Assembly (NCBI GenBank): GCA_963835575.1
Contig: CAWIGG010000002.1
Coordinates: 32,001-96,000 of the forward strand
Source of the DNA: an uncultured Spirochaetota bacterium
GTDB lineage: Bacteria; Spirochaetota; Brevinematia; Brevinematales; JAOACQ01
DNA: 64,000 nt
Reading direction: 5' to 3'
Below are positions 1 to 17,895 of this stretch, piece by piece. The notes beneath the pieces were generated by a model that had not been told where the DNA came from, ran no database searches, and was given only the letters and a program-made list of their open reading frames with translations. Position 1 is the stretch's first letter. Each line of letters starts with the position of its first letter. The position numbers were made by a program, and so were the translations under genes.

Positions 1-1
1 A

Positions 2-2467: not shown

Positions 2468-2500
2468 TTGGATTAGAAAAAAGTTAATTGAGGTTATTAT

Positions 2501-3736
2501 ATGAATGGAAAAAAAAACGATCAAAACGATTTTATCTGTTATATAGGTAATAAGAAAGAAATATCCTTAGAGAAAATACGCTTAAGAATAAAAAATTATC
2601 TGGAACTGGATAATGTTAGTATTCTTGCCGGTGCAGGTACAAGTTTTCATATTGGCGCGCCTATAATAAGAGTAATTCCAAAAGAAATAAATGACTCATT
2701 ATTAAGCGATAAAGAAATAAAAGATTTTTACAAAATTAAAATAGATGAAATCAGTAAAGATAAAAATAACAACAAGGGTATATCTCTCGAAGATTTTCTC
2801 AATTATTTACAGGCAGATAGATTTTGTGCAATAACAAGATCAGAAGACATAACTAATTATGACATTTTAATTAAAAAAATTCAAAGTGAATTATTTTTAC
2901 GATGTAATACTCAGAATACAAACTTACATAATGATTACAAAGAAGATTCTAATTTAAAGGAAAATAGATATTTTTATCATGAGAAATTAATCAAAAAAAT
3001 ACTCCTAAGACCAATTAATCTGAGACGTGTCAATCTTTTTACTTCTAATTATGATTTGGCTTTTGAATATAGTTTTGATAATACAGGAATATATTATATA
3101 AATGGTTTTTCTGGTTTTCAGAGACGATTTTTTCATCCTGAATCCTATGATTATGACGTTTATTATCCTGGTCAAACTACAAGCGGAAAAGTGCATCGTG
3201 CTGAAAAAGTTTTACGTTATTATAAATTACATGGTTCTTTATCTTGGATTTTTACTGAACAAAATGCAAGAAATTTATATGGAATTGAAGAAATTTATAT
3301 TGATAAAAAACCAGAAAACGAATTAGTAATATATCCATGTGTAACAAAAAAAAGATTTACTCTCGATTTGCCTTATTCCGAATTATTCAGACATTTCTCA
3401 AATTCTATTAAACTAAACCAGTCAGTATTGTTTTGTATTGGTTATTCTTTTAATGACGAACATATAAATGATATAATCTATCAGGCTCTTTCAATTCCTT
3501 CTTTTACTCTTTTTGTAATTGATTATAAAGCTACGGATAATAAAGAAATTAATAAATTAAAATCTCTCAATGATCCACGTATTTTAATAATTGAAGGTAA
3601 ATATGCGAAATTCACTAAATTTGTTACTGATGTTTTACCTGATATATATGATGAAAAAGATGAAATCAAGATTACTGAAACAATGAATAAATTATATAAT
3701 ACTGATAATAATGATGAGGAAATTTCAGATGTCTGA
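2501..3736 (+). CDS. SIR2-like NADase of a Sir2-HerA defence system
   Basis: Sirtuin-like motifs ILAGAGTS, FTSNYD, YYKLHGS and IGYSFNDEH; overlaps the HerA start. Confidence 0.88.
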   Translation: MNGKKNDQNDFICYIGNKKEISLEKIRLRIKNYLELDNVSILAGAGTSFHIGAPIIRVIPKEINDSLLSDKEIKDFYKIKIDEISKDKNNNKGISLEDFLNYLQADRFCAITRSEDITNYDILIKKIQSELFLRCNTQNTNLHNDYKEDSNLKENRYFYHEKLIKKILLRPINLRRVNLFTSNYDLAFEYSFDNTGIYYINGFSGFQRRFFHPESYDYDVYYPGQTTSGKVHRAEKVLRYYKLHGSLSWIFTEQNARNLYGIEEIYIDKKPENELVIYPCVTKKRFTLDLPYSELFRHFSNSIKLNQSVLFCIGYSFNDEHINDIIYQALSIPSFTLFVIDYKATDNKEINKLKSLNDPRILIIEGKYAKFTKFVTDVLPDIYDEKDEIKITETMNKLYNTDNNDEEISDV

Positions 3737-5852
3737 TCGTCAAATAGGCCGTGTTGTATCTGTAGATAATTTTCGTGTTTTTGTAAAGCTTGATGATGAT
3801 CTAACAAGTACACATAAAAGCGGTTTTAATGACATTTACGAAGTTGCACGCATCAATTCTTATCTTATCATACCTGTGGGTTCAGATAGAATAGTAGCTT
3901 TAATTACAAGGGTCAAAATGCAGGAAGAACCCGAATTCGATAAAAATAAACAATCTATTTCACTGCCTTCTTCTTCCAGATATATTACCGCAACTATGCT
4001 AGGCACAATTGAAACAAGAAATAATAAAGAAATATTTATTCAAGGCGTATATAATTTTCCGGTTCTCGATAATGTAGTCTGGTTCATTACCGCGGATGAT
4101 TTAAATAAAATATTCGATTATAATGAATCTTCCGAGATAGATTATTCTAAAGACTTTTATCTTCCTATCGGTAATTCTCCAGCTTTTCCGGATTATGATG
4201 TGAAAATCTGCCCTGACCAACTTTTCGTAAAACATACGGCAATTTTAGGAAATACCGGGTCTGGTAAATCGTGTACGCTTACTTCCATATTGAAATCCAT
4301 TTTTAACTATAAATTTAAGACAAAAGTTGCTGGTCAAACGGAACAAAGTGAAGAATGTTATTTGAAGAATGCCCATTTTATTATATTTGATACTAATGGA
4401 GAATATAAAAATGCTTTTATTTCTGAAGGTGAACAATTCGAAAGAATAAATACCCTGGTTATTGATGATAAAGGTCTAAAAGTACCTTACTGGTTTATGA
4501 ATTGGGATGATTTTGATTATTTGTTTGAGCCGGGTTCTGGCACACAAGCTCCAATTTTGAAAAGAGCAATAGGATTGGCTAAAAATATTACAGAAGCTAA
4601 AACAAATAATTTGCTTAATAAAGTTTTGGAAGGATGCCTCGTAGAAATTATAAATTCTGCTTGCGGTTGTGAAGAATGGAAATTCAAAGCTAAAAGAGAA
4701 AAAGATAAAAATTTTGATTGTAATAATCAAATACTTCAATTATCAAAAGAACTGGAAAAGTATTCTGAACTGAATTTAAGAAATATTTCAGAGAAATTAA
4801 AAATTTTAGGTAAAAAAGATTTAACATTAACTGAAAAAACACAATCAATTAATGAAATTGAATTAAGTTATAAAAAATATAAAGAAAGTTTGATTGATCA
4901 ACAAATAATGACAGAAAAGAATATTGATCTTCCAGTATGGTTTAAGTATCAAGAATTAATTACAAAGTACATTGATTCCGCTATTGAAGAACATGAGGGT
5001 TCTTCTTCAAAAATTAGTGAATATGTCTCAACACTTAGATTGCGTTTGGAAGGCTTTTTTAATGACCGGCGTATTGCCGATCCTTTATTATTAAATATTG
5101 AAGCAGAATTTACAGAATCTTTAATAAAATTCATTTCATTTATCTTTGGCGATTTCTACCGATCCTTAAATAATAATGAAACCGATGTTTATTCAGAATA
5201 TTATAATCAATTAAAATATGATCAATTTGAAAATATACCAAATAAAGGAAAAGCAAACCAGATCACAATTCTTGATATGTCACTTATCCCTTTTGATGTA
5301 CTTGAAAATTTGACTGGACTTATAGGTAGACTGATAATTGAATTTGTGGAGCATTTTAAACCTGAGGAAAGAGGTCGGTATCCAATAGTAATTGTATTAG
5401 AGGAAGCTCAAAATTATATACCGGAAAAGAACAGGAAGGACCGGGAATCCATAGCAAAGAAAGTTTTTGAAAGAATAGCCCGTGAAGGACGTAAATATGG
5501 TATTTCATTAATAGTATCCAGCCAAAGACCTTCGGAATTATCAAAAACTGTGTTGTCTCAATGCAATTCATTTATCATTCATCGGCTACAAAACCCTGAC
5601 GACCAAAAATATATAAAAGGACTTGTTTCCAGCGCCAATAGTGATATTTTAGATCAGCTACCGATACTCCCGCAACAGCATGCAATAATCATGGGTGATT
5701 GCGTCCGTACCCCTGTACAAATGAGAATAAATGATATATCACCCAAACCAAATAGTGACAACCCAAGATTTATTGAAAAATGGCTTGAAAGTAATAATGA
5801 TTTTCCTGATTACAAAGAAATTTGTGACAGATGGGAAGAAGGTAAAAAATAA
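3729..5852 (+). CDS. herA: HerA/FtsK-family ATPase (HAS barrel + helicase), partner of SIR2
   Basis: N-terminal IGRVVSV barrel, Walker A GNTGSGKS, Walker B IVLEEAQ, IAREGRKYG and SQRPSEL. ATG at 3729 follows GAGGA and overlaps the SIR2 stop. Confidence 0.88.
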   Translation: MSDRQIGRVVSVDNFRVFVKLDDDLTSTHKSGFNDIYEVARINSYLIIPVGSDRIVALITRVKMQEEPEFDKNKQSISLPSSSRYITATMLGTIETRNNKEIFIQGVYNFPVLDNVVWFITADDLNKIFDYNESSEIDYSKDFYLPIGNSPAFPDYDVKICPDQLFVKHTAILGNTGSGKSCTLTSILKSIFNYKFKTKVAGQTEQSEECYLKNAHFIIFDTNGEYKNAFISEGEQFERINTLVIDDKGLKVPYWFMNWDDFDYLFEPGSGTQAPILKRAIGLAKNITEAKTNNLLNKVLEGCLVEIINSACGCEEWKFKAKREKDKNFDCNNQILQLSKELEKYSELNLRNISEKLKILGKKDLTLTEKTQSINEIELSYKKYKESLIDQQIMTEKNIDLPVWFKYQELITKYIDSAIEEHEGSSSKISEYVSTLRLRLEGFFNDRRIADPLLLNIEAEFTESLIKFISFIFGDFYRSLNNNETDVYSEYYNQLKYDQFENIPNKGKANQITILDMSLIPFDVLENLTGLIGRLIIEFVEHFKPEERGRYPIVIVLEEAQNYIPEKNRKDRESIAKKVFERIAREGRKYGISLIVSSQRPSELSKTVLSQCNSFIIHRLQNPDDQKYIKGLVSSANSDILDQLPILPQQHAIIMGDCVRTPVQMRINDISPKPNSDNPRFIEKWLESNNDFPDYKEICDRWEEGKK

Positions 5853-5986
5853 ATATAAATTTAAAACATAAAAAGCCACTTTTTTAAAATATTTTAAGGA
5901 AGTATTAAAAATGGCAGCGCTAACTCTAATCTCCGCAGTTATTCCGGCGGAGACAAAGATGGGATTCTTTTTCCAAGCCATATATT

Positions 5987-6382
5987 AAGCTTTCCTCGGG
6001 CACTCCCGAAAACTCCGGCGCGGTCGCCGTCCTTCCACTGCCTGCGTTTTCGGGAGTGCCCTCGTCAAGCTTCCTGTTTTCAACCCTTTGAGCACTGCCT
6101 CACTCTTAACATAATTTTTCTTATGGTCAAGCAAGCGAATTAATCGCACTTTTTTATACTGATATTCCTCTATTTTTTTATAAAGTTATTTTATAATTTA
6201 TTCTTTTTTCTACCGATGGCTCAATGGAGTAAACGCCTGCCCATAAGAAGAAATTATGTTAAGTAGCAAAGGATTTAATAATTTTTATATCCTGCATCTT
6301 TCTTATTCTCTAAAATCTTTTCTTTATTGTTGCTTTCTCAACCTTTGCTAACGTTCGGCGCGCTCAAAGGGTTGAAAACAGG
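5987..6382. repeat. Nested inverted repeats forming a large branched ssDNA/RNA structure
   Basis: Stem pairs: 5998-6013/6046-6061 (16 bp perfect), 6073-6093/6362-6382 (21 bp perfect), 6105-6126/6241-6263, 6264-6272/6342-6350. Confidence 0.85.
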
Positions 6383-6570
6383 GCTGGCGCATTTCGTTAT
6401 TATTTTCCACCCTGCCCGCCCGTATAGAATGAAGCAAAAAGCATAGCTTTTTTTATGAGCTGTCCCGTCCGTCCCGTAGATATTCTTTTTCTCTTTCAGG
6501 TTCCAATTTCGGGACTCCCCTTTGTCCTTTTTCACTTGTCAGTACCGTTTTAAAACCGTGCTCTTTAAAT

Positions 6571-6790
6571 ATTTTCACCCTGCCTTTTTTATTATACCGT
6601 GAGAAAAATAAAATAGTCCACTTCGCCAAGGGTAAAGTCGCAAGCTCCCGATTTAAAAATATTTTATTGTCTTAAAAACAGAAATGCTTTTTTTAAAAAC
6701 CAAGGGTCTTTATTACAGGTTAAAATATTTTTAAATCGCCCTTGCTATTTTATTTTTCTCGCTGGTGTTGTATTTAGTCAGGGTTAGAAA
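6571..6790 (+). promoter_or_regulatory. Candidate Frpo-like single-stranded DNA promoter
   Basis: Stems 6649-6666/6721-6738, 6627-6632/6739-6744, 6601-6616/6745-6760 and 6577-6582/6779-6784 enclose an 18x18-nt bubble containing ATTATA (6591-6596, TATAAT on the minus strand). Confidence 0.6.
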
Positions 6791-6822
6791 TTTTATTATA
6801 ACTCAAATTTTAGGAGGTATTT

Positions 6823-7203
6823 ATGTCAGCTTATATTGTCAGCAAAGATCACATTTCTGCGTTAGTCAGTTTTTGTAATGCGAAAAATGTTTATGTGTAT
6901 TATGATGGGAAAAAGTTTGATGTCACGAATCTTGACGCTATTGGTCAGATTCTCGTGAATGAAAACTACCGTTCAGTTAATACCCGGTATAGTTCAAACG
7001 ATGCCCCATTTGTTTACGAGTTTCAATATCTGCAACGGCATTTTACGCTTATTCAGATTATTAAACTATGTCATTGCTATAATTATCAGTCATGTGAAAC
7101 GGAAGATTATTATGAATCTCTTGCCTATGCGATTGTGAGAGGTATCGAATCTCATGCTGTCCGGTTATTACCTGGCTATGAAGAAGCGGAATGGGGTTTA
7201 TAG
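6823..7203 (+). CDS. Hypothetical protein (126 aa), mobile-element type
   Basis: Clean ORF with strong AGGAGGT Shine-Dalgarno; no motif recognised. Confidence 0.8.
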   Translation: MSAYIVSKDHISALVSFCNAKNVYVYYDGKKFDVTNLDAIGQILVNENYRSVNTRYSSNDAPFVYEFQYLQRHFTLIQIIKLCHCYNYQSCETEDYYESLAYAIVRGIESHAVRLLPGYEEAEWGL

Positions 7204-7257
7204 TTTTGAAGCGTTATTGAAACGGAATTGAAGCGGAGAAGGTCTCCTTAAGAAATA

Positions 7258-7296
7258 AAAAAGCCCCTGCATTTTATAGATTTATGCAGGGGTTTT
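7258..7296. terminator. Bidirectional intrinsic terminator
   Basis: AAAAAGCCCCTGCAT...ATGCAGGGGTTTT between convergent genes. Confidence 0.7.
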
Positions 7297-7321
7297 AGTT
7301 TGCGATATCCGGCCGGGATTA

Positions 7322-7651
7322 TCAGCTCGGCATAAACGGAGTTGTAGGAGCTGTCCCATTGTTTGCGTTTTTGTAGTTTATATATCCGCTCACATACAGG
7401 TTAAAACCGCTCATCTGCTGACCACTTGCAGCACTATTCCAGGCGTCTTTTGTCGCCTGTGTTTCCGCCTGCCAGGCCGCTACCGCCGCCGTAAAATAGT
7501 CCCTGACTTTAAGCTGATTTTCAGTCTGGGGATTTGAAGGTACAGTATACTGCCTGCTATAGTTGATCCCCTTCCATTTTGCGAAAACCATCGTATCGGC
7601 AAATGTGCCGCTTGCGTCAAGGGACATCAAAGGCCCTGTTACTTTTGCCAT
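7322..7651 (-). CDS. Phage/virus-like hypothetical protein (MAKVTGPLMSLDASG..., DUF6266-like)
   Basis: GGAGGTGG SD. The pattern ASGTF...VFAKWKG..Y.R.Y..P.NP.T..Q..VR resembles small virus-associated proteins; family assignment is from memory. Confidence 0.55.
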   Translation of the reverse strand: MAKVTGPLMSLDASGTFADTMVFAKWKGINYSRQYTVPSNPQTENQLKVRDYFTAAVAAWQAETQATKDAWNSAASGQQMSGFNLYVSGYINYKNANNGTAPTTPFMPS

Positions 7652-7988
7652 AGTATTTCCACCTCCTTAAAGGATATAATTTTAAACAAATATTTTTTAC
7701 CCTTTATTAATAGTCATTTTTAAGGGTATCGAAATGAAATAAATGGTTGAATTTAATCGGCAGGGAAGAATGACTGAATAAAACAAACAGGTTACATACG
7801 GAAAGTTAATAAATATTATCGGAAAGCAAGATATTATGGAGATCAATGCTGGGGAATAATAGGTTAAAAAACCTATTACGAACTATTTAAAACCCTTAAA
7901 AACTATTTGTAAAGCTCATTGGAAGTTTTTAAAACCATAAAAATATTTATGGTATTATTTATGATTATATTTATATTCTCTGTTTTCC

Positions 7989-8017
7989 TTGACAGTACCT
8001 TAAATTTGTCTTAATAT
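7989..8017 (+). promoter_or_regulatory. Sigma70-like promoter upstream of the Panacea TA pair
   Basis: TTGACA-N17-TAATAT. Confidence 0.45.
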
Positions 8018-8159
8018 TTAGGCATACTGTTAACAATACTATTCAAATACTTGACGGAGAGAATTTTCCGTGAAATCGATTTTGAAATAGAAATATCTGT
8101 TCTATTTATCATATTCTTAATTAGAATTCCGAATATTAAATATGAAGGGGGCGTAGCTT

Positions 8160-8708
8160 ATGATTAGTTATAAATTTAATGAAACAAAAGCAATTCAGTT
8201 AATCGCTTTTCTTCTTAAGCAAGATAATACAAAAGATTATAATAATTATACAAAAATTATCAAACTTTTATACTTGGCAGATAGAGAAGCATTAAATAGG
8301 TGGGGAAGATCAATAACAAAAGATATTTATGCAAATCTTCCAGCGGGGCCGATTGTAAGTGAAACTTATGATTTAATTAAGGAAATGAAAAAAGGGGCTA
8401 ATGAATTTATTTGTTCTAAAAATGAATATGATTTGGCATTAGTAAGTGATCCTGGTGATGATGAATTAAGTAATGCAGAAATTAAGCTACTTAGAGAAAT
8501 ATCTGAAAAATATAAGGATAAAACATATCAAAAAATGGTTGATGAGGTTCATCGTCTTCCTGAATGGGTTGATCCAAGACCTAGAGGGAAAAAATCATTA
8601 TCAGTTGAAAATATTTTAGAAGTGTTAAATAAAACAGATGATGAAATTAAAGAAATTGAAGTATCAAACAAAGAAGAAAACTATATAATTAATGTCTTAG
8701 GTTTATAA
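8160..8708 (+). CDS. Panacea-domain (DUF4065/SocA-like) antitoxin
   Basis: KIIKLLYLADREAL..WGRSIT.D.Y..LPAGPI..., ELS..EI..L and VH.LPEW motifs. Confidence 0.82.
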   Translation: MISYKFNETKAIQLIAFLLKQDNTKDYNNYTKIIKLLYLADREALNRWGRSITKDIYANLPAGPIVSETYDLIKEMKKGANEFICSKNEYDLALVSDPGDDELSNAEIKLLREISEKYKDKTYQKMVDEVHRLPEWVDPRPRGKKSLSVENILEVLNKTDDEIKEIEVSNKEENYIINVLGL

Positions 8709-8709
8709 G

Positions 8710-9087
8710 ATGAAAAAAGGGGGGACATTCTACGGCAACCCAGAAGGAGCCTCTCAACCCCATCTACACTGTATAATTACAGACTCATCCGAGCATAAAG
8801 AAAAAGGTAAATGTCTTTTTGTTCATATGATTTCATATAATGAAGGTAATCCGTATTCAGACCGTTCTTGTATTTTAAATAAAGGTGATCACCCATTTAT
8901 TACACGTCCAACTTGCATAAATTATGCTGCTGCAACGGAAATAGATTTAGAGAATCTTGAATTTGCTGTTAGTCGATGTTTGTGTGAAGAAAATGCCCCT
9001 CTATCCTTAGAAATCTTAGAGAGAATACGTGAAGGGGCAAGACTTTCTGATCATTTACCTAGAAAATATAAATACTTATTCGAATAA
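8710..9087 (+). CDS. Putative PemK/MazF-like toxin partner of the Panacea antitoxin
   Basis: Starts 1 nt after the antitoxin stop; PHLHCIIT...D.SCIL..GDHPFI.R.TCINY pattern. Confidence 0.55.
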   Translation: MKKGGTFYGNPEGASQPHLHCIITDSSEHKEKGKCLFVHMISYNEGNPYSDRSCILNKGDHPFITRPTCINYAAATEIDLENLEFAVSRCLCEENAPLSLEILERIREGARLSDHLPRKYKYLFE

Positions 9088-9421
9088 AATAAAGAAATTT
9101 AATCATTCAAAGAAAGAATTATGAATTTTCATCATAATAAAATAAGCAATAATTATTATTTCTAAATATTGTGTTAATTTTTCGACACTATAAAAAGGAT
9201 TAAACAGAGTTTTTAGAGTCCGTAAAAAAGGCATTGAATATATTAAAATTAATAGTAAAACAATAAAATAACTATAAGGTTCCATTGTAAAACAAAAAAA
9301 TAACAAAAAAGTAAACGATATTAGAAATCTTATAATAATTACTTTTCCCTAAAAATGTTATTGTTTTGTTACCAAATAGGTTTTATAATTCACTTATCTT
9401 ATTGCTATTATATATATTAAC

Positions 9422-9527
9422 AACTCTATAAGCAAAAACTGTGACAAAGCAAAATGTGGGCGCATCCCCGCAGGGCCGATAGGCCCGTAGCGTTTACACC
9501 GGGTTGTACGAAGTTTGCCGGGCCGAA
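9422..9527 (-). other. Truncated terminal attC-like site
   Basis: Minus strand reads TTCGTAC-AAC CCGGTGTAAACG..., then an internal GGGCC/GGCCC hairpin and TTTTGCTTTGTCACAGTTTTTGC; the complementary L' arm is missing. Confidence 0.6.
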
Positions 9528-9530
9528 TTT

Positions 9531-10058
9531 CTATTTAAATATTTCATTAGCATCAATTTCAGCTGGCAGATTATCTTTTGTTAAATATCCTGGTAATCCC
9601 CACCATTGATTATAGTTATCATCATAATAATTAATAATTATTCTAATCTGTTCGTTATACAATTTTAATGAATCTAATAAATTCTGATAAATATATTTCT
9701 TTTCTTCAATTGATTTAACTTGAGCAAATCCAGCATCTTCTGGTGCAGGTTGAGGCATAACTATGGATTTTTGGGAAATATTCTCTTTAATATTATTATA
9801 ATAATTTTTTTCTATTGTTGATCTTTCATTTACAAATTTGTCTAATTCTTTAATATAAAGTGTATAAAATACAAATGAATGCTTCAGATTTTCCTCCCTT
9901 TTAACCAATTCCCTATAGAATTTAATACACATTTCATAGTTATATCTATAATTATTGAATGAAAATATAGTTGGTTTCTTTAAAGATTTAAAACATTTAT
10001 TATTTAGGTTGAGAATATCATAAAATTTTGGAATTAAATTACTATTTTCTTTTTCCAT
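9531..10058 (-). CDS. Cassette-encoded hypothetical protein (cassette D)
   Basis: ATG at 10058 with AGGGGA SD; AT-rich; flanked by inverted repeats 9503-9527/10101-10125. Confidence 0.75.
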   Translation of the reverse strand: MEKENSNLIPKFYDILNLNNKCFKSLKKPTIFSFNNYRYNYEMCIKFYRELVKREENLKHSFVFYTLYIKELDKFVNERSTIEKNYYNNIKENISQKSIVMPQPAPEDAGFAQVKSIEEKKYIYQNLLDSLKLYNEQIRIIINYYDDNYNQWWGLPGYLTKDNLPAEIDANEIFK

Positions 10059-10118
10059 AAATGTTCCCCTTATATAACAATTTAAAATCGAATAACCAGC
10101 TTCGGCCCGGCAAATTTC

Positions 10119-10272
10119 GTACAACGGTGCGCGTAGAAGAAGTTTGGCGGCCCGTCAGGGTTGGCGTCTTTTTTGCATCCCACGCGCAAAAAAGATGACA
10201 AAGCCAAATTTGCCGCAGGCCGAGCACCGCCCGGAGCCGCGCGAGGACGGAGCGGAGCTTCTACGCGTTGTT
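10119..10272 (-). other. attC-like site 1 (R'' side interrupted by the IS)
   Basis: AAC(10123-25) GGTG CGCGTAGAAG ... CTTCTACGCG TT GTT(10270-72); internal hairpins TTTGGC/GCCAAA and TCTTTTTTGC/GCAAAAAAGA. Confidence 0.8.
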
Positions 10273-11994
10273 GAGTCTGTCGAAAAAGTGATATTTAATG
10301 TAAATTATTATCGATATAGCTTAAAATAATGAATGAAATAAATCAATAGCGGAAGGTTATATGGCAAGATACAAGACAGTTAATTATGAGCAGATGGAAA
10401 TGATACCGCTCAATTTTTCAGATCAGCTGATCGAAGGAACATATGAACACACACTCAATTTCCTAATCGAGGAAAAGGCTGACCTTTCCTGTTTTGATAT
10501 AAATTATAAAAATGATAAAACAGGCTCGAAAGCGATTTCTCCGGCAATTCTTCTGAAAATAATCCTTTTTGCCTATTCGAAAGGTATTACTACATCACGC
10601 AGGATTGAGGAAGCTTGCCGGGTGAATGTCATCTTCAAAGCCCTGTCCGGGAATACCGTTCCAGACCATTCCACTATAGCCGCTTTTGTTACCGGTATGA
10701 AAGACCGGATTAAAATAGTATTTCAGTTTGTGCTGATGGTCTGTTCTTCTGCGGGATTGATCGGCGGGGACATGTTCGCCGTTGACGGCTGTAAATTGCC
10801 TTCAAACGCTTCTAAAGAATGGAGCGGTACATTCAAAGACCTGAAAAAGAAACAGGAAAAGTTTGAAAAGCTGGCGGCATTTCTACTGGAAAAACACGCG
10901 CAAGCTGACTGCTCCGGCGAAAATGAAAAGTCTAAAGCGCTTCAAAAAAGATCGGAAAAAATACGGAAGAAAGCGGAGAAAATCGATGCCTTTCTCAAAT
11001 CCCAGAATCCCAAATACGGCAAGCGGGGACGTGAAAACCAATCGAATATTACCGATAACGAAAGCGCGAAAATCAAGAGTTCCCACGGTGTGATACAAGG
11101 TTATAATGGACTTGCGGTAGTGGATTCAAAGCATCAGGTGATTACCGCGGCGGAAGCTTTTGGTTTAGGCCAGGAAGGGGAAGTATTGAAGCCGATGGTT
11201 GAAATAACGGAGGAAAATTTAAGCGTGATAAAAGGAGAAACAAATCCGCTGGAAGGAAAAACAATACTGGGGGACACGAATTATTTCAGCGAAGAAAATC
11301 TAAAATATCTGGCGGAAGAAAAGAAGATGGAAGCTGTGATACCGGACAATCAATTTCGAGGGAGGGATGAACGGTTTACCGATCGGGGAAGGTTCAAGCC
11401 GAAACCGATGAAATACCGGGAACACGATTTTGAAAAAAATGAAGCTGATAATACTTATATATGCCCGAATGGAAAAATATTAAGCTATAAGGGATACCAG
11501 AGGCAATTGAGTAATTTCGGCCATAAATATCAGGCCAGGCAGGCGGATTGTTCAAAATGCGGGAAAAGGGGACAATGCTTAAAACATCCCGATAAGACAA
11601 GGCAAAGAACATTATATCTGGTGGACAAAAGAGGGGATAAAAACTATTCAAAAGAAATGGTAAATAAAATTGATCTGCCGGAAATCAGGGATTTGTACAG
11701 CCGGAGGATGGGAATAATTGAGCCGGTATTCGGTAACATCCGTTCTTGTAAAGGTATGGACCGTTTTACGCTCAGGGGTAAGAGTAAGGTTAATATCCAG
11801 TGGCTTTTGTTCTGTATAGTGCATAATATTGGTAAAATCCAGATATTTGGTAAGATTTAAGGGGGTGTTCATAGCCATAATACCGGCTTGAAATTGGAAA
11901 AATGGAAAATCCGGATAGAGAAATGAAAAATGATACTCTATCCGGCTTTCAGAAGACAGTTTTTATTCTCGTTTTTGGCTTTTTCGACAGGGTC
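10273..11994 (+). mobile_element. IS1182-family insertion sequence with 3-bp GTT target duplication
   Basis: Terminal IRs GAGTCTGTCGAAAAAG and CTTTTTCGACAGGGTC; GTT at 10270-72 and 11995-97. Confidence 0.88.
10361..11860 (+). CDS. IS1182-family DDE transposase
   Basis: LLKIILFAYSKGITTSRRIE, PDHSTIA, AVDGCK, GYN, C-terminal Cys cluster (CPNG...CSKC...C) and IEPVFGNI. Confidence 0.9.
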   Translation: MARYKTVNYEQMEMIPLNFSDQLIEGTYEHTLNFLIEEKADLSCFDINYKNDKTGSKAISPAILLKIILFAYSKGITTSRRIEEACRVNVIFKALSGNTVPDHSTIAAFVTGMKDRIKIVFQFVLMVCSSAGLIGGDMFAVDGCKLPSNASKEWSGTFKDLKKKQEKFEKLAAFLLEKHAQADCSGENEKSKALQKRSEKIRKKAEKIDAFLKSQNPKYGKRGRENQSNITDNESAKIKSSHGVIQGYNGLAVVDSKHQVITAAEAFGLGQEGEVLKPMVEITEENLSVIKGETNPLEGKTILGDTNYFSEENLKYLAEEKKMEAVIPDNQFRGRDERFTDRGRFKPKPMKYREHDFEKNEADNTYICPNGKILSYKGYQRQLSNFGHKYQARQADCSKCGKRGQCLKHPDKTRQRTLYLVDKRGDKNYSKEMVNKIDLPEIRDLYSRRMGIIEPVFGNIRSCKGMDRFTLRGKSKVNIQWLLFCIVHNIGKIQIFGKI

Positions 11995-12013
11995 GTTATA
12001 TGCCGTTGCCCAA

Positions 12014-13054
12014 TCATTCTTTTAACCCGCTTTCTGTAATTTTTAATATTACCGATTTAACAATGTCCAAGAATACAGATATTTCTTTTTCAGAATATGA
12101 CTTACTAATTACCCACTTTAGATTTGATTGAGCATTAACAAAATAACCTGTCTTTACAAGATTCTCTTTATAGTAATCTATAATAATTTCAGGATTATTG
12201 ATTTTCTTTTGAATTTCTTCAAAACCGGAATAAATACTTTGTTTAAAAACTGATTTTGGAGGATAACCAAATAATAATGCGATTTTTTTATCACTTATAT
12301 TTAGATTTAAAGAATATCCTTTTGAACCCCAAATAAACATTAAGGTATTGACTTTTGCAAACTCGATAATTTTATTGAAAACCAATTTTCCATTTTCATC
12401 TAAAGATTCTAAAAAGTCTTTCTGATTTACTTTTGGTAATGAAGCAGATTGAACATTTTGTTTTTTATATTCTTCATCGCCTATTATCATATCTGAAGAA
12501 ACGACTTTTTCTCCATTTTTTGATTCAAAATATTTAAATTCTAAACAATTAATATCAATTCCTTTTTGTCTTAAGAAAACAGCAGTTTGTTTAATTTCTT
12601 TGCTAATTTCCTGAGCGATAATTAGTAAACGCATATTTTTATTAAATGATACTTGTTGATCCGGTTCTTGAATAAAATATTGATTGTGATAATCTTCTAA
12701 ATTTGATTCTTCTCCATAATATTCTTTAAATATTTCATTTAATTGCTCATAATTCAAATTTTCAATAAATGATGCATATTCAAGTATTTGTGCGATGGTT
12801 TCTCTGGGTGTTTTATCTCTTTTTAGTTCAATGACAACAACATTGCCAATTTTATCTATTCCCAATAAGTCAATATAAGCATTGAAATTAGTTGATACCT
12901 GTCTTCCAATAATTAATATTTTTGTATTTTCAAAGAAATAATCCGGATTCTTTTCCAGTAAAATTTCTAAATCTTTTTCTATATTATTAATTTTGAAATT
13001 TTGTTCTTTGTAAGGAGTGAAATTTCCTTCATTGTTTATTGTAAATAATTTCAT
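12014..13054 (-). CDS. NucS/DUF91-like PD-(D/E)XK nuclease with C-terminal extension (cassette C)
   Basis: EKDLE..LEKNP, IGRQV, IDLLGID..G..VVIELKR, AQILEYAS; GGAGG SD; flanked by IRs 11995-12016/13072-13093. Confidence 0.75.
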   Translation of the reverse strand: MKLFTINNEGNFTPYKEQNFKINNIEKDLEILLEKNPDYFFENTKILIIGRQVSTNFNAYIDLLGIDKIGNVVVIELKRDKTPRETIAQILEYASFIENLNYEQLNEIFKEYYGEESNLEDYHNQYFIQEPDQQVSFNKNMRLLIIAQEISKEIKQTAVFLRQKGIDINCLEFKYFESKNGEKVVSSDMIIGDEEYKKQNVQSASLPKVNQKDFLESLDENGKLVFNKIIEFAKVNTLMFIWGSKGYSLNLNISDKKIALLFGYPPKSVFKQSIYSGFEEIQKKINNPEIIIDYYKENLVKTGYFVNAQSNLKWVISKSYSEKEISVFLDIVKSVILKITESGLKE

Positions 13055-13086
13055 TTGTTTCCTCCAAAAGCTGATTGGGCAATGGC

Positions 13087-13272
13087 ATATAACGGCACAG
13101 ACAAGCCGACGTTTTTTCGGCTTAGAGCCAGGCTTGCCGCTCTTAGCCGAAAAAATGTGGTGAACTTTTTGTCCTTCTCCTCCGGCCTACTTCTCAAAAA
13201 GTGAACCTGAGGAACGGAACCCGGAGCGACTGAGCGTAGGGTGAGTACCGGAACGTTTGTCTGTTGTTAGCT
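13087..13272 (-). other. attC-like site 2
   Basis: AAC(13091-93) GGC ACAGACAA ... TTGTCTGT T GTT(13266-68); branched internal hairpins shared with site 3. Confidence 0.85.
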
Positions 13273-13447
13273 GCTGTGCCGGTTGCCGTGTATCATGAGC
13301 ATATTTTATTTTTATTCCAAGTTTTTTTGATAGTTTTTCAACATAATTATGAGTTTCTTTAACAATTTTTAATAAGTCATAATCATTTTCAGCAGACATT
13401 TTTCTTTGAACAATTTCTTTATTTTTGATAATTTCATCTAAAATCAT
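13187..13447 (-). CDS. Small protein, probable antitoxin partner of the PIN toxin (cassette B)
   Basis: Directly follows the PIN gene, with SD AAGGAGG in the PIN 3' end; reads through into attC site 2. Confidence 0.6.
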   Translation of the reverse strand: MILDEIIKNKEIVQRKMSAENDYDLLKIVKETHNYVEKLSKKLGIKIKYAHDTRQPAQQLTTDKRSGTHPTLSRSGFRSSGSLFEK

Positions 13448-13451
13448 AAAT

Positions 13452-13919
13452 TTATTCCTCCTTATTTAGTAATTCTAAAGGTGTGATAATTTCAGGTATA
13501 TACAATCCCAATCTAGTATTAATAATTCTGATGTGTTGTTTTTTATTTCCATTTGCCAAATGAGTACAATTCCAGGTCAATAAAAAATCGATTTTATAAT
13601 AAGACGCATAAGATAAATGAAGTGCATCTCCACCTAATTCTTTAGGCATTAAATAATTGTCAATATAAATCTGTGCGATATCAAGAACATCTTTATTTGG
13701 AGGTAAAACGGTAAGTTTCAAAGCGTTTTGAAGAACTTGTTCTTTTCTTGGATAATTACTTTCTCCAAGCTCTTTTAATGTTTCTTCTGATAAGGATACT
13801 TTATAAAATTTCTTTTCTTCTTTCCACCATTTTTTTGTGATATCAATAAGAAATTGAATCTCTTCCCTTTCATCATAAAGAAAACTCAGAACTGTAGAAT
13901 CTAAATAAACAGATTTCAT
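13452..13919 (-). CDS. PIN-domain (VapC-like) toxin (cassette B)
   Basis: VYLDSTV, S.ETL.EL, DALHLSYA, LLTWNCTHLAN and IITP motifs. Confidence 0.85.
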   Translation of the reverse strand: MKSVYLDSTVLSFLYDEREEIQFLIDITKKWWKEEKKFYKVSLSEETLKELGESNYPRKEQVLQNALKLTVLPPNKDVLDIAQIYIDNYLMPKELGGDALHLSYASYYKIDFLLTWNCTHLANGNKKQHIRIINTRLGLYIPEIITPLELLNKEE

Positions 13920-14024
13920 AAAATATCCCACTTATTTTTTATTAATTATAATACTAAAATGAAATTATCACACTTTTTTTATTGCGTTTTTTGTTTTATA
14001 ACAAAGCCAGGCAACCGGCATTTC

Positions 14025-14200
14025 AGCTAACGGTGGCGGACAAACGACGTTTGCAAGCCTTAGAGCCAGGCTTGCCGCTCTTAGGCTTGCAAATGTGGTG
14101 AACCTTTTGTCTTTCTCCTCCGTCCTACCCAACAAAAGGTGAACCCGAGGAGCGCAGGCGTCGCAACGCCGAGCACCGCAGCGTTTGTCCGCTGTTGGGC
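14025..14200 (-). other. attC-like site 3
   Basis: AAC(14029-31) GGTG GCGGACAAACG ... CGTTTGTCCGC T GTT(14194-96). Confidence 0.85.
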
Positions 14201-14581
14201 GATGGCGGCCAATTCTCTGAATGAATAAGATTTTCCGCAGGCAATTATTTCGCTGAATTTCTCAGTCTTTCTATAAATATCATTACTTGACAACGGCACT
14301 TATTTTCTTACATATGCCTGCGACCATAACCCTTCTCTTTATTCATTATAATCAAAAATGCCCATAATAATTTTATCAAACAGCCTTTATTTTTTCAAAT
14401 AAGAATTCTTAAAAAATAATATTTTCAAGTAAAAAAAACAACATAAAAATAATTTTATTTCTATTATAACTAATTTATAAGCCAAATATCTAAATTATCT
14501 CTTACAACCTGAACTACGCAGAGAAATATCCGTCCTTCCCGGGCATTTTTGAATGTTTATTATACAGCATTGGCCGCTTTC

Positions 14582-14683
14582 GCCCAACTCTATATAAAAG
14601 AATTTCGTTTTTTATGAAAATAATTACTACGATTTATTGTATAAAATACGAAATTGAATCAGATTATTTTAATAAGCTAATAT
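14582..14683 (-). other. Putative attI site at the 3' end of the integrase gene
   Basis: Minus strand TATATAGA|GTTGGGC (GTTRRRY) starts cassette A. No attC hairpin lies upstream, only AT-rich DNA with an AATTTCGT/ACGAAATT inverted motif. Confidence 0.7.
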
Positions 14684-15745
14684 TTAAGTGTCAAGATTAG
14701 TTTTTTTTAAGCTTAGAGTTACATCAAGGGGGCTGATAATATTTTTAACTATGTTTTTTGAAATATGGGTATAGATCTCTGTCGTTTTTAGACTTTTGTG
14801 CCCCAGAAAGGTCTGGATATACCGGATATCTGTTCCATTTTCCAGAAGGTGTGTCGCGAATGAATGCCTCAGACAGTGAATACTGCATTTTTTATTGATC
14901 CCGGTTTTTATAACGGCATTTTCAAATACTTTTTCCGCTGTTCTTATCGTTATGTGGCTGTTTATGTCATAACTTGGAAAAAGCCAGATGAGAGTATTGT
15001 AATGTTTGGTATAATCATCCATCAATGAAAGGATGATATCCGAAAGTATGGTGATCCTGTCTTTATTCCCTTTGGCCTTCCTGATAAATATCTGCTTTCT
15101 TTCACGGTCAAGGTCTTCAATTTTTAGTTTGACAGCTTCGCTGACCCTTAATCCGGCCGAATATATAATGGAGATTAAAAGTTTGTGTTTTAAATTATCG
15201 ATACCGGATAGTAATTTTATGATTTCCCCTGTATTTAAAATCACAGGAAGCTTTTTGTCTTTTTTTGCCCTGGGTATGTATACCGTAAAATCCTTCTTCA
15301 ATATTTTACCATAGAAATATTTAATCGCGTTAACGGCGCAATTAATAGTTGACGAGGACAGGTTTTCTTCATCCGCGAGATAATAAAGGTATTCCATAAT
15401 TTCAGGCCTGGTTATTAATTCCGGTTTTTTCCCATGATATTCAAGCATATTTTTATTGTAATAAAGATATGAGGCTATTGTCTGAGAACTGTATTTTCTG
15501 ATCTTAAGCTCTTTCTCCAATACGGTCAGATAATGATCGTAAGAGAATAATTCGTGATAACTTTCCGGGAATAATTCCTTTAGCCGGATAATATTTTCTT
15601 TTTTCGGGTTTATTAACCAGCATTTATTCTGCTTGTCCCATTTGCTTCCGGAAATTGTATGCATTTTCTCAATTAAATCTATGTCATAAAGGAAACACAC
15701 CTCAATTTCCCCGCTATTATTATATCGCATCTTCACATCTTTCAT
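14684..15745 (-). CDS. Integron-like tyrosine recombinase with N-terminal HARP-like domain and no IntI-specific insertion
   Basis: SAM-like domain YSSQTIASY, KKLPVIL; catalytic motifs GLRVSE, KGNKDR, HCLRHSFATHLLE, LGHKS and TTEIYTH. Only ~23 aa separate KDR from WLFP. Confidence 0.85.
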   Translation of the reverse strand: MKDVKMRYNNSGEIEVCFLYDIDLIEKMHTISGSKWDKQNKCWLINPKKENIIRLKELFPESYHELFSYDHYLTVLEKELKIRKYSSQTIASYLYYNKNMLEYHGKKPELITRPEIMEYLYYLADEENLSSSTINCAVNAIKYFYGKILKKDFTVYIPRAKKDKKLPVILNTGEIIKLLSGIDNLKHKLLISIIYSAGLRVSEAVKLKIEDLDRERKQIFIRKAKGNKDRITILSDIILSLMDDYTKHYNTLIWLFPSYDINSHITIRTAEKVFENAVIKTGINKKCSIHCLRHSFATHLLENGTDIRYIQTFLGHKSLKTTEIYTHISKNIVKNIISPLDVTLSLKKTNLDT

Positions 15746-16032
15746 ATTTTTCTCCTCTTTTACCTTAATACCTGAAACTTGTTAAATGGTATGTAGATTA
15801 TGTTTTATTGTTGTAAATAAATATTAACATTTAGCTCAATATTAAGAATATAAATCGAATTTCGTTAATTAATTACGAAATATGGATTGCTGTCTTCCCG
15901 GGTTGAAGGCGGCTGATTACGGCTTTAATATGGAAGGAGTGTATTTGCCGCATGGGAAGGAGTATAATACTGTCAGCGCAAAAAAAGTTTTTTTATTAAA
16001 ATGTATTATTATCGCCTGAAATTTATTACTCT

Positions 16033-16061
16033 TTGATAAATAACCTGTCTTCTATTATAAT
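16033..16061 (+). promoter_or_regulatory. Sigma70-like promoter for lepA
   Basis: TTGATA-N17-TATAAT. Confidence 0.55.
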
Positions 16062-16080
16062 ACTATAGTGTAAATTTGGA

Positions 16081-17895
16081 GTGAATATGTCTTACAGGGA
16101 TCAGATCAGGAATTTTTCCATCATCGCTCATATCGACCATGGCAAGTCGACGCTGGCCGACAGGATCCTGGAAAAGACCGGCATCATTGATAAAGCGAAA
16201 GGCGGGGAGCAGGTCCTCGATTCCATGACGGTTAAGAAGGATCATGGCATTACCGTCAAGGCGCATACGGTTTCCGTGCCGTACAAAGCGAAAGACGGGA
16301 TTGATTACACGCTGAACCTGATCGATACGCCGGGCCATGTCGATTTTTCCTACGAAGTTTCCCGGAGCCTCGGCGCGTGCGAGGGCGTTCTTCTTTTGAT
16401 CGACGCCTCGCAGGGCGTTCAGGCGCAGACGCTCTCCAATTTTTATCTTGCCTTCGAGCAGAACCTGGAGATCATTCCTGTGATCAATAAAATCGACCTG
16501 CCCAGCGCCCATATCGATATGGTAAACGAACAGATCGAAAAAGACCTCGGCCTTTCTCCGGAAAGCGCGCTCAAGATCAGCGCCAAGGCGGGCATCGGCA
16601 TCGAGGAAGTTCTGGAAGCGCTTGTCACTAAAATCCCGCCGCCGAAGGGCGACGAAAACGCCCCGCTCAAGGCCCTTGTTTTCGATTCTTATTACGACAT
16701 CTACCGCGGTGTGATCGTCAAGGTGCGGGTTTATGAAGGGAGCGTCAGGCATGGCGACCAGATTTCCTTTATGCTTTCCAACCGCGAGTACCAGGTGGAG
16801 GAAGTCGGGCTCATGCGGATGAGCCTGCTGAAAAGGGACGAGCTCCGTGCCGGCGAGGTTGGTTACATCATCGCCGGGATCAAGTCCATCTCGGAATTCG
16901 GCGTCGGCGATACGATCACAACGAAGATTCATCCCTGTGATAAGCCGCTGGCCGGCTACAAGCCGCCCAAGCAGTATGTTTTCGCCGGGCTTTTTCCCAT
17001 CGAGGGCGAGCAGTTTGATGAGCTTCATGAAGCGCTTTATAAGCTCAAGCTGAACGACGCCTCTCTCTCATTCATAAAGTGGAATTCCGGCGCCCTGGGC
17101 ATGGGCTTCAAGTGCGGCTTCCTGGGCCTTCTGCATCTTCAGATCATCCAGGAGCGGCTGGAAAGCGAGTTCAACCTTAGTATCATCTCCACAGTACCGT
17201 CTGTTGAATACCGGATCAAGCTGACGAACGGTAACACTATTTTTATAGAGAACGCCACGGAACTTCCTGAGAACAGCAGCGTCTCCCAGATTGAGGAGCC
17301 GTGGGTGACAGCTCGGATCATACTGCCGAACGATTTTCTCGGCACGGTCCTCGACCTGATCCAGAAAAGGCGCGGCATCCAGAAGAACATGCTCTATATC
17401 GATTCCACACGTGTCGAGGTCAAGTGCGAGCTGCCGCTGGCGGAGATCATCTACGATTTTTACGACAAGCTGAAATCCTTCTCGAAAGGCTACGCCTCCT
17501 TCGATTACGAATTCCTCGAGTTCCGCCGCGGCAAAGTTGTCAGGATGGACATCCTTGTGAACGGCAAGCCCGTGGACGCGCTGGCCCAAATGGTCCATGA
17601 GGACAATGCCTACGCCCGCGCGCGTTCCGTCTGCGAAAAGCTCCGCGAGCTCATTCCCCAGCATCTCTTTCAGATCCCGGTCCAGGCTGCGATGGGAGGC
17701 AAGATCATCGCGCGCGAGACGATCAAGGCACTGCGCAAGGACGTGACGGCCAAATGCTACGGCGGCGACATCACCCGGAAGCGCAAGCTCCTCGAGAAGC
17801 AGAAGGAAGGCAAAAAGCGGATGAAGACCATCGGCAATGTGGACATTCCGCAGGAAGCCTTTATCGAAGTCCTCAAACGGGGCGACGATGAATAG
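16081..17895 (+). CDS. lepA: Elongation factor 4
   Basis: IRNFSIIAHIDHGKSTLADR, DTPGHVDF, KCYGGDITRKRKLLEKQKEGKKRMK. Confidence 0.97.
   Translation: MNMSYRDQIRNFSIIAHIDHGKSTLADRILEKTGIIDKAKGGEQVLDSMTVKKDHGITVKAHTVSVPYKAKDGIDYTLNLIDTPGHVDFSYEVSRSLGACEGVLLLIDASQGVQAQTLSNFYLAFEQNLEIIPVINKIDLPSAHIDMVNEQIEKDLGLSPESALKISAKAGIGIEEVLEALVTKIPPPKGDENAPLKALVFDSYYDIYRGVIVKVRVYEGSVRHGDQISFMLSNREYQVEEVGLMRMSLLKRDELRAGEVGYIIAGIKSISEFGVGDTITTKIHPCDKPLAGYKPPKQYVFAGLFPIEGEQFDELHEALYKLKLNDASLSFIKWNSGALGMGFKCGFLGLLHLQIIQERLESEFNLSIISTVPSVEYRIKLTNGNTIFIENATELPENSSVSQIEEPWVTARIILPNDFLGTVLDLIQKRRGIQKNMLYIDSTRVEVKCELPLAEIIYDFYDKLKSFSKGYASFDYEFLEFRRGKVVRMDILVNGKPVDALAQMVHEDNAYARARSVCEKLRELIPQHLFQIPVQAAMGGKIIARETIKALRKDVTAKCYGGDITRKRKLLEKQKEGKKRMKTIGNVDIPQEAFIEVLKRGDDE

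Follow-up and report, generated by a model that had tools for sequence, protein, structure and literature searches.

An integron-like cassette array headed by a tyrosine recombinase with a HARP-like N-terminal domain and without the IntI insertion in an uncultured Spirochaetota bacterium

The window analysed here is a stretch of 64,000 nucleotides (nt) from an uncultured Spirochaetota bacterium (assembly GCA_963835575.1, contig CAWIGG010000002.1, positions 32,001–96,000), and our subject is a tyrosine recombinase gene within it, together with the array of integron-like gene cassettes that follows this gene on the same strand. Window coordinates are positions in this stretch, and C1–C7 denote contigs of the source genome, each with its own numbering. 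The recombinase gene occupies positions 14684–15745 of the minus strand, as an open reading frame (ORF) of 353 amino acids (aa). It is followed by an attI site (14586–14683, minus strand), an AT-rich spacer that ends in TATATAGA directly before the crossover GTT at 14586–14588; the spacer between the recombinase ORF and this GTT has 95 nt and 16.8% GC, and the motif GTTGGGC is found at 14582–14588 of the minus strand.

Four cassettes follow, all on the minus strand. Cassette 1 (14031–14587, 557 nt) has no convincing ORF and ends in attC1 (14029–14196, with AAC at 14194–14196 and GTT at 14029–14031), a complete hairpin. Cassette 2 (13093–14030) contains ORFs of 159 aa (13452–13931) and 86 aa (13187–13447) and ends in attC2 (13091–13268), also a complete hairpin. 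Cassette 3 (10125–13092) contains an ORF of 346 aa (12014–13054) and attC3, which consists of 10123–10272 plus R'' at 11995–12016, the two parts being separated by an insertion sequence (IS). Cassette 4 (9432–10124) contains an ORF of 197 aa (9531–10124) and the 5' half of attC4 (9432–9505, R'' AAC at 9503–9505), with the break at 9432–9444. The initial annotation of this stretch had placed the recombinase, the attI-like GTTGGGC, the four cassettes, and the hairpins correctly, in coordinates as well as in motifs. Its count of three intact-looking hairpins and a truncated one holds for the three complete hairpins; attC4, however, is not truncated but split by an integrated element of 14.85 kb, and attC3 is not damaged but whole, being interrupted by an IS1182-family element at its R'' AAC. 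The window holds only the head of the array, which continues past position 9422 and, beyond the upstream edge of the window, as far as the end of the contig.

The protein of 346 aa encoded in cassette 3 resembles the candidate defence family PDC-S11 (PADLOC, E 6.5e-46), and its N-terminus contains a NucS-like nuclease region. The two ORFs of cassette 2 match no family in Pfam, NCBIfam, or PADLOC; searched against the same collections, the window cassette ORFs match no immunity family, and three of them have no match of any kind. The GC content of the cassette ORFs is 24.6–28.3%, compared with 54.7% for lepA, while the attC-like elements, approximately 150–180 nt long, have 52–60% GC.

The folding of the attC-like elements, the matching ends of the cassettes, and shared cassettes that break at GTT together identify these elements as recombination sites. 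The mean fold z-score of 31 distinct sites relative to shuffled sequences is −4.1; the inner (L) stem has ten predicted pairs, nine of them with compensatory double changes, and the bottom strand forms the more stable fold in 28 of the 31 sites. As for the cassette ends, cassette 1 starts with 23 nt that can pair with its own R'' flank (87% complementarity), and the termini of cassettes 2, 3, and 4 form inverted repeats of 22, 23, and 25 nt, with complementarity of 86, 96, and 96%, respectively. A complement of the R'' flank (at most five mismatches in 22 nt) is present within 6 kb upstream for 26 of 37 attCs, and for only 4 of 36 in the downstream control. Circularisation of a unit that is cut at G↓TT (the arrow marks the cut) would leave exactly such a pattern.

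There are seven occurrences of one particular attC together with its upstream cassette, and the sequences behind them are of six kinds, with divergence starting exactly at GTT. Conversely, the downstream start GTTAAGCGAAAGCCGG is found after four kinds of attC, and GTTGTACGAAATTTTCCGG after three kinds. Copies found in different surroundings part exactly at GTT; the cassettes are, accordingly, mobile units, and the crossover lies at the distal GTT, in both respects as in integrons. Variants of the spacer before GTT (AAAC or ACC) travel with the attC and not with the next cassette, which rules out cleavage between L' and the spacer. Use of the top strand as the substrate, with a cut at the proximal AAC, would tie an attC to the gene behind it, contrary to what is seen in the shared cassettes. 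Tyrosine recombinases cleave at the 5' edge of the central region, and the top-strand junction G↓TT therefore corresponds to bottom-strand cleavage at AA↓C.

A profile built from the window sites yields 66 matches in the genome, clustered in arrays at C2:1–46 kb, at the opposite end of this contig, and on C6, C7, C3, and C5, with the strand always being that of the nearest recombinase. The array at the C2 end is headed by a second copy of attI and cassette 1 (C2:2028328–2028912; L093:2329–2912), in which attI is 98.7% identical to that of the window, and attC1 is 100% identical up to GTT and different thereafter; this copy has no recombinase gene, and a transposase-like ORF of 434 aa lies upstream instead. 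A paralogue of the recombinase on C6 (47% identity) heads a second array, and its attI ends in TATAAAGA directly before GTT; near-identical copies of the paralogue on the short contigs C7 and C1 may be assembly duplicates. The near-identical attI and attC1 copies, and the shared cassettes with clean GTT junctions, point to recent exchange; the array thus appears to have been recently shuffled.

The sites have a geometry of their own. The R box has 11 bp and is conserved in sequence, TTTCG-YNY-AAC being paired with GTT-RNR-CGAAA, and continues into an outer stem in the circular form; the L stem has 10–11 bp, and only its structure is conserved. An asymmetric loop separates the R box from the L stem, with 0–2 nt after AAC and 3–5 nt before GTT (on the cassette-sense strand). 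The commonest loop spacings are 1/3, 0/4, and 2/4 nt in the arrays of this genome (22 of 30) and 1 and 5 nt in other taxa (25 of 58 hairpin matches), and the polarity of the loop is the same in 15 loci of other taxa, with 47 hairpin matches versus a single match to the mirror geometry. On the bottom strand, the extra bases belong to the arm that also contains AAC. In canonical attC sites, according to the accessible part of the source, the integrase reads extrahelical bases which, on the bottom strand, face the AAC triplet (Nivina, 2016). The canonical attC geometry, that is, R and L boxes of approximately 7 bp, a central spacer unpaired on both arms, and extrahelical bases opposite AAC, is not found here. 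The cleaved strand, composed of an arm of approximately 11 nt, then 4–6 nt, then an arm of 10–11 nt, may be loosely likened to a dif site folded on itself.

The recombinase contains a SAM_4 core-binding domain (PF13495, E 3e-17) and a catalytic domain (PF00589, E 4e-37), and the catalytic residues R200, K225, H290/R293, H316, and Y325 show little or no variation among 43 relatives. It scores below the curated cut-offs of the IntI and Xer profiles: 213.7 bits versus 265 for the IntI profile TIGR02249, 155.5 versus 435 for the IntI profile PRK15417, 215.8 versus 220 for XerA_Arch (NF040815), 172.6 versus 329.6 for XerD (TIGR02225), and 157.1 versus 335.15 for XerC (TIGR02224). The TIGR02249 match is split into two stretches, covering model positions 2–172 and approximately 235–313 and leaving approximately 173–234 unmatched. 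The best solved relative is VchIntIA (PDB 2a3v), and here, too, the alignment comes in two pieces, residues 74–235 and 263–341 of the query being aligned with 7–170 and 240–318 of the chain. As the alignment breaks where VchIntIA has 69 residues and the recombinase 27, i.e., approximately 42 fewer, the IntI insertion (the I2 helix, around patch III) is absent; the archaeal XerA (PDB 5hxy) aligns with the recombinase in one piece, over its whole length. In the translation, KGNKDR and WLFP are separated by 23 residues, and the N-terminal stretch FLYDIDLIEKMHTISGSKWDKQNKCWLI is present, as the initial annotation had noted. Judging by these profiles and alignments, the recombinase is a close relative of IntI and XerA without the IntI-specific insertion. 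No canonical IntI accompanies it in the source genome, where 0 of 35 matches exceed the TIGR02249 cut-off (the assembly is 94% complete).

Residues 1–75 (15521–15745, minus strand) form a HARP-like domain, a family-level profile match. In a profile of 24 homologous N-termini the top PDB match is 4o66, the HARP domain of SMARCAL1 (E 5.9e-5); nine of the 24 N-termini match Pfam HARP (PF07443) at E ≤ 0.01, and two of seven full-length relatives score above the 25-bit gathering score of HARP, with three more below it. The AlphaFold model of the N-terminal domain has a pLDDT of 85.4. On these sequence-profile grounds the domain is called HARP-like, and it may bind the hairpin or junctions between single strand and duplex. 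It had been suggested that the domain takes over the role of the missing insertion. In that form the suggestion is not supported: the SAM_4 domain starts at residues 99–130 in the four canonical, insertion-bearing spirochaete IntIs examined, and in two of these (L117:1498–2835 and L127:1498–2724) the N-terminal extension of approximately 100–130 aa matches the HARP-like profile (hhalign, 94.1%, E 1.3e-7 for L117 and 97.0%, E 1.1e-10 for L127), with L125 and L128 having a different extension. Since domain and insertion coexist in canonical IntIs, the former cannot simply replace the latter. Homologues from Bacteroidales/Porphyromonadaceae have several HARP-like modules before the recombinase core, three in tandem in a protein of 544 aa (L072:9437–11071) and two in one of 456 aa (L066:2946–4316).

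The nearest protein outside the source genome is 51% identical to the recombinase, and thousands of relatives are found in Bacteria and Archaea, those with a name being mostly labelled XerD, XerC, or "site-specific tyrosine recombinase/integron integrase". We surveyed 80 homologue loci from species-representative genomes. The sequence profile of the source-genome attCs gives 15 weak matches in seven of these loci, all downstream of the gene and co-oriented with it; as the site sequence is lineage-specific, a structural scanner was used, which looks for AAC, 0–2 nt, a 10-bp stem, later its complement, 2–5 nt, and GTT. Downstream of the gene it finds 58 hairpin matches on the gene strand (1.62 per 10 kb) and 10 on the opposite strand (0.28 per 10 kb); upstream, 11 on the gene strand (0.18 per 10 kb) and 18 on the opposite strand (0.30 per 10 kb). 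Sixteen loci could be evaluated, with an N-terminus that matches and 4 kb or more of sequence downstream, and 12 of them contain arrays, nine detected by hairpins and three by direct repeats. Among the loci with arrays are those of a complete Desulfitobacterium genome, Flavobacterium, Arundinibacter, Nitrospirae, Thermodesulfobacterium, and Spirochaetia. Canonical IntI is absent from three other array-bearing genomes, one of them complete. In 26 of 42 homologue loci the contig ends within 2.5 kb downstream of the gene, compared with two of 42 within 2.5 kb upstream; repeats that break the assembly would produce such a pattern.

A canonical IntI (358–504 bits over the whole of TIGR02249) is encoded in 15 of 151 genomes from the same phylum, and approximately 26 more have only split, insertion-less matches. 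A quick 43-row tree was rooted with three Xer-like proteins encoded in the source genome; in it, nine of ten canonical IntIs form one long-branched clade with support 100; the tenth row, L122, is probably mis-extracted (branch length 10) and is left outside the clade count. The 30 insertion-less rows fall into no single resolved clade, and the canonical IntIs and insertion-less rows together separate from the Xer rows with support 94. From this tree, IntI may be either sister to the insertion-less family or nested within it. The lineage is less isolated than the initial annotation had implied: the canonical IntIs branch among insertion-less lineages that do not resolve, and a comparable layout, rAID-1, is in print.

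We consider it probable, with a likelihood of about three in four, that the window is the head of a large sedentary integron-like platform, whose adjacent insertion-less recombinase with the HARP-like domain captures, excises, and reshuffles cassettes. The observations behind this reading are the array and its hairpins, the covariation of the stems, the position of the crossover, the missing insertion, the lack of a canonical IntI, and the recurrence of the arrangement in other phyla. The recombinase would act between attI (ending in TATATAGA before GTT) and folded single-stranded attC-like hairpins, each composed of the conserved 11-bp R box, the short asymmetric internal loop, and the L stem of 10–11 bp. 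Exchange would occur at G↓TT of the distal R box, corresponding to AA↓C on the bottom strand, and a cassette would have the structure TT...ORF...AAC-hairpin-G, as in integrons. The recombinase is the presumable acting enzyme, and the bottom strand its presumable substrate; an enzyme that lacks the insertion, matched with sites in which the unpaired bases are positioned elsewhere, would make a coherent picture. In its main lines this agrees with the initial annotation, which had described an integron-like system (recombinase and array share one orientation, and GTT is the crossover) and a recombinase without the IntI insertion (seen in the two-piece VchIntIA alignment and the split TIGR02249 match) but with a HARP-like N-terminal domain (by the profile match to 4o66 and the nine N-termini matching HARP). 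Two of its expectations, that the genome has no canonical intI elsewhere and that homologues lie upstream of such arrays, are borne out by the 35 matches below the cut-off and by the 12 of 16 loci from several phyla; and annotation based on IntI profiles would indeed not call the recombinase an IntI, its score being below the TIGR02249 cut-off.

Several points weigh against this reading. Xer-like genes of the source genome (C2:1244996–1245784, C4:114239–115060, and C3:299947–300711) could encode the acting enzymes instead. The N-terminus of the window recombinase itself has no match to Pfam HARP, and the structural comparisons of its model are weak: Foldseek finds nothing at E ≤ 0.001, with 4o66 at rank 7 (E 0.3, TM 0.47/0.51), and the best VIA-align Z-scores are 4.9 for T4 MotA, 4.5 for XPB, and 3.8 for 4o66, none reaching 5. 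HARP, the XPB damage-recognition domain, and MotA are described as one fold group. The unpaired bases are on the arm opposite to that of the canonical extrahelical bases, hence, the analogy with IntI chemistry may fail in detail. Four of the 16 evaluable loci (L014, L019, L021, and L053) have no array detectable by hairpins or repeats. The repeat family also occurs as scattered single copies outside arrays and could be a more general one. Finally, no excision joints are found in public sequencing data (four runs from four studies, contigs only and none of RNA, mainly fragments of IS plus attC).

Four other explanations were weighed. The Xer-like genes just listed, the dif-like dimensions that the folded site would have on the cleaved strand, and the incompleteness of the assembly (94%) would fit the cassettes being moved by another recombinase, either a host XerC/D-type enzyme acting on folded sites in a CTX-like manner or an unassembled canonical IntI, with the HARP-bearing gene being a mere neighbour. 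We regard this as unlikely, since two different HARP-type recombinases are each located directly at the attI of an array head, the pairing and the co-orientation recur in several phyla, and no canonical IntI is found in any of four array-bearing genomes, one of them complete. The IS in attC3, the 14.85-kb element in attC4, both in the proximal part of the array, and the second attI copy without a recombinase might indicate decay, the array being a fossil of a lost canonical integrase, and the present recombinase having an unrelated job, such as dimer resolution or inversion. However, the second copies of attI and attC1 are 98.7 and 100% identical to those of the window, many cassettes are common to different arrays and have clean GTT junctions, compensatory changes have been kept in the stems, and the loop polarity is the same in the 15 loci of other taxa (47 matches versus 1); a fossil array is, accordingly, improbable.

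An ordinary integron, with a merely divergent integrase and the same mechanism, would be in line with VchIntIA as the best PDB relative, with the 213.7 bits scored on the IntI profile, and with a layout that resembles the co-oriented spirochaete integrons, as far as these are described in the accessible text. This is very unlikely: the region that defines IntI is absent (27 versus 69 residues) and the score remains under the curated cut-off, a clade of their own, with support 100, holds the canonical IntIs of this phylum, and the site geometry is different. The scattering of single copies around the chromosome is what one would expect if the GC-rich repeats were an intergenic family of the repetitive extragenic palindrome (REP) or miniature inverted-repeat transposable element (MITE) type, and not recombination sites. 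Here the odds are slight, given that the modular junctions of shared cassettes fall exactly at GTT, both ends of each cassette are mutually complementary, there is one site per gene unit, the sites have a single strand orientation, and the arrays start at a recombinase; nor does any Rfam family match the sites (scan of window positions 9000–16200 at E ≤ 0.1).

Returning to the platform run by the adjacent insertion-less recombinase, we compared it with the systems known. Canonical integrons, e.g., the Vibrio cholerae array with VchIntIA, likewise have a tyrosine recombinase of the SAM_4 type adjoining attI; mostly promoterless cassettes, each with an imperfect hairpin bounded by AAC and GTT and with the crossover at G↓TT; sites that are alike within a host and fold better on the bottom strand; and low-GC cassettes, one of which contains a candidate defence gene in the present case. 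They differ in having the IntI insertion, which is lacking here, whereas the recombinase described here has the HARP-like N-terminal domain and is co-oriented with its cassettes. Differences are also seen in the sites: an 11-bp R box with an outer stem and 22–25 complementary bases at the cassette ends instead of approximately 7, and a loop of 3–5 nt on the arm that bears the crossover instead of extrahelical bases on the opposite arm, in sites of approximately 150–180 nt. As an integron is a cassette array with folded sites bounded by AAC and GTT that starts at an attI beside a recombinase, the array is one by composition; with IntI, the enzyme shares the tyrosine recombinase fold and the catalytic residues, while lacking the insertion and scoring below the curated cut-off. 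The system is integron-like, yet it lacks two defining features, the IntI insertion and the canonical attC geometry. The co-oriented ("reverse") integrons of the Treponema type, in the accessible accounts of them, belong to the same phylum and have the same co-orientation; unlike the present recombinase, their IntIs score 358–504 bits on the full TIGR02249, contain the insertion, and belong to the separate clade with support 100. Archaeal integrons are reported, in the text available, to have the IntI additional domain (Ghaly, 2022).

Among published layouts, rAID-1 of Bacteroidales comes nearest; in the available text, it consists of a 5' recombinase of the XerD family, co-directional short low-GC genes, and intergenic repeats "reminiscent of integrons", and is found in 226 of 423 Bacteroidales genomes (Ross et al., 2019, bioRxiv 10.1101/471110; rAID-1 is also treated in a 2025 preprint). 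The likeness is one of description, and the present recombinase may be kin to BF9343_RS08045, the rAID recombinase to which the 5' enzyme of such a cluster is required to be at least 44% identical. The window array has the downstream features by which rAID-1 is recognised, namely at least two co-directional downstream genes, GC of at most 41%, and repeated intergenic motifs. With a Bacteroidales homologue as the query, matches at E ≤ 1e-40 are obtained in 75 of 151 genomes of the order, many of them covering the catalytic part only, and one Bacteroidales homologue with HARP modules is followed by six co-oriented hairpins of the same geometry. The description of rAID-1, in its accessible part, contains no folded attC-like sites, crossover point, HARP domain, missing IntI insertion, or occurrence outside Bacteroidales; moreover, the cargo of rAID-1 is orphan immunity genes, whereas the cargo here is not recognisable as such. 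Xer enzymes acting on folded single strands, as with the CTX phage, and the archaeal XerA–dif system are a further comparison: XerA is the nearest profile outside IntI, and the cleaved strand would be dif-like when folded. In contrast to Xer and XerA, the recombinase is below the XerA cut-off, has several copies per genome at array heads, and has a HARP-like N-terminus, and the sites flank mobile cassettes and not, as dif does, the replication terminus. Our search of the main texts of openly accessible journals revealed no description of an integron integrase that lacks the insertion or bears a HARP domain, and none of the crossover point or the site geometry.

A broader proposal, to which we give somewhat less than even odds, is that a second class of integrons, ancient, widespread across Bacteria and Archaea, and based on folded sites of a different geometry, is operated by HARP-bearing IntI relatives that lack the insertion. 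The IntI insertion is treated as defining and essential, and integron detection depends on it; were the proposal true, recombination of hairpin cassettes would need no such insertion, canonical IntIs would be one long-branched, insertion-gaining offshoot of a HARP-bearing family, and surveys with IntI profiles would have missed most of integron diversity, including systems in Bacillota and Bacteroidota. Shuffled arrays are headed by the insertion-less family in Spirochaetota, Bacillota, Bacteroidota, Nitrospirota, and Thermodesulfobacteriota, and close relatives of it occur in Archaea, hence, it would widen the reach of cassette-based gene capture, and many "arrays without integrase" would become complete systems. 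The family would also be a natural point of comparison for studying the choice of folded single-stranded sites and of their strand, and would bear on the origin of integrons from Xer-like enzymes. The array described here carries at least one candidate anti-phage gene.

The scattered single copies of the repeat suggest single inserted cassettes outside arrays, seen at C2:1248043–1250400, C2:1772038–1773200, C2:249134–250100, C5:159837–160900, and C5:367243–368650. In each of them, the complementary start directly follows TATnnnnA before GTT (or GAT), akin to the two attI endings, which looks like insertion at secondary sites.

The element within attC3 (10270–11997, plus strand) has 1728 bp and belongs to the IS1182 family, its transposase (10361–11860) scoring 277.4 bits on the transpos_IS1182 profile (cut-off 270). 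It sits exactly at the R'' AAC of attC3, with AAC on either side. The copies of this element are found in the window, at C6:168903–170630, C6:412093–413820, and C2:2042218–2043945, and at the contig ends of C3 and C5. For four of its six full copies, the insertion point is the R'' AAC of an attC, which suggests that the element targets folded attC sites. Contigs joining the end of the IS1182-family element to the start of an attC are also present in three other sediment metagenome runs.

The 14.85-kb element (C2:26579–41444) interrupts the terminal hairpin of attC4, with the 13-nt direct repeat TCACAGTTTTTGC at both breaks. Part of it covers window positions 1–9431 (no strand assigned) and lies outside the cassette system proper. 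The missing 3' half of attC4 is at C2:26470–26591, its L' arm being complementary to the L'' arm in the window. The element encodes a tyrosine-integrase-like ORF of 364 aa (L092:6722–7816; partial TIGR02249 match at C2:27562–27762) and contains a SocA/Panacea antitoxin-like gene at window positions 8160–8708.

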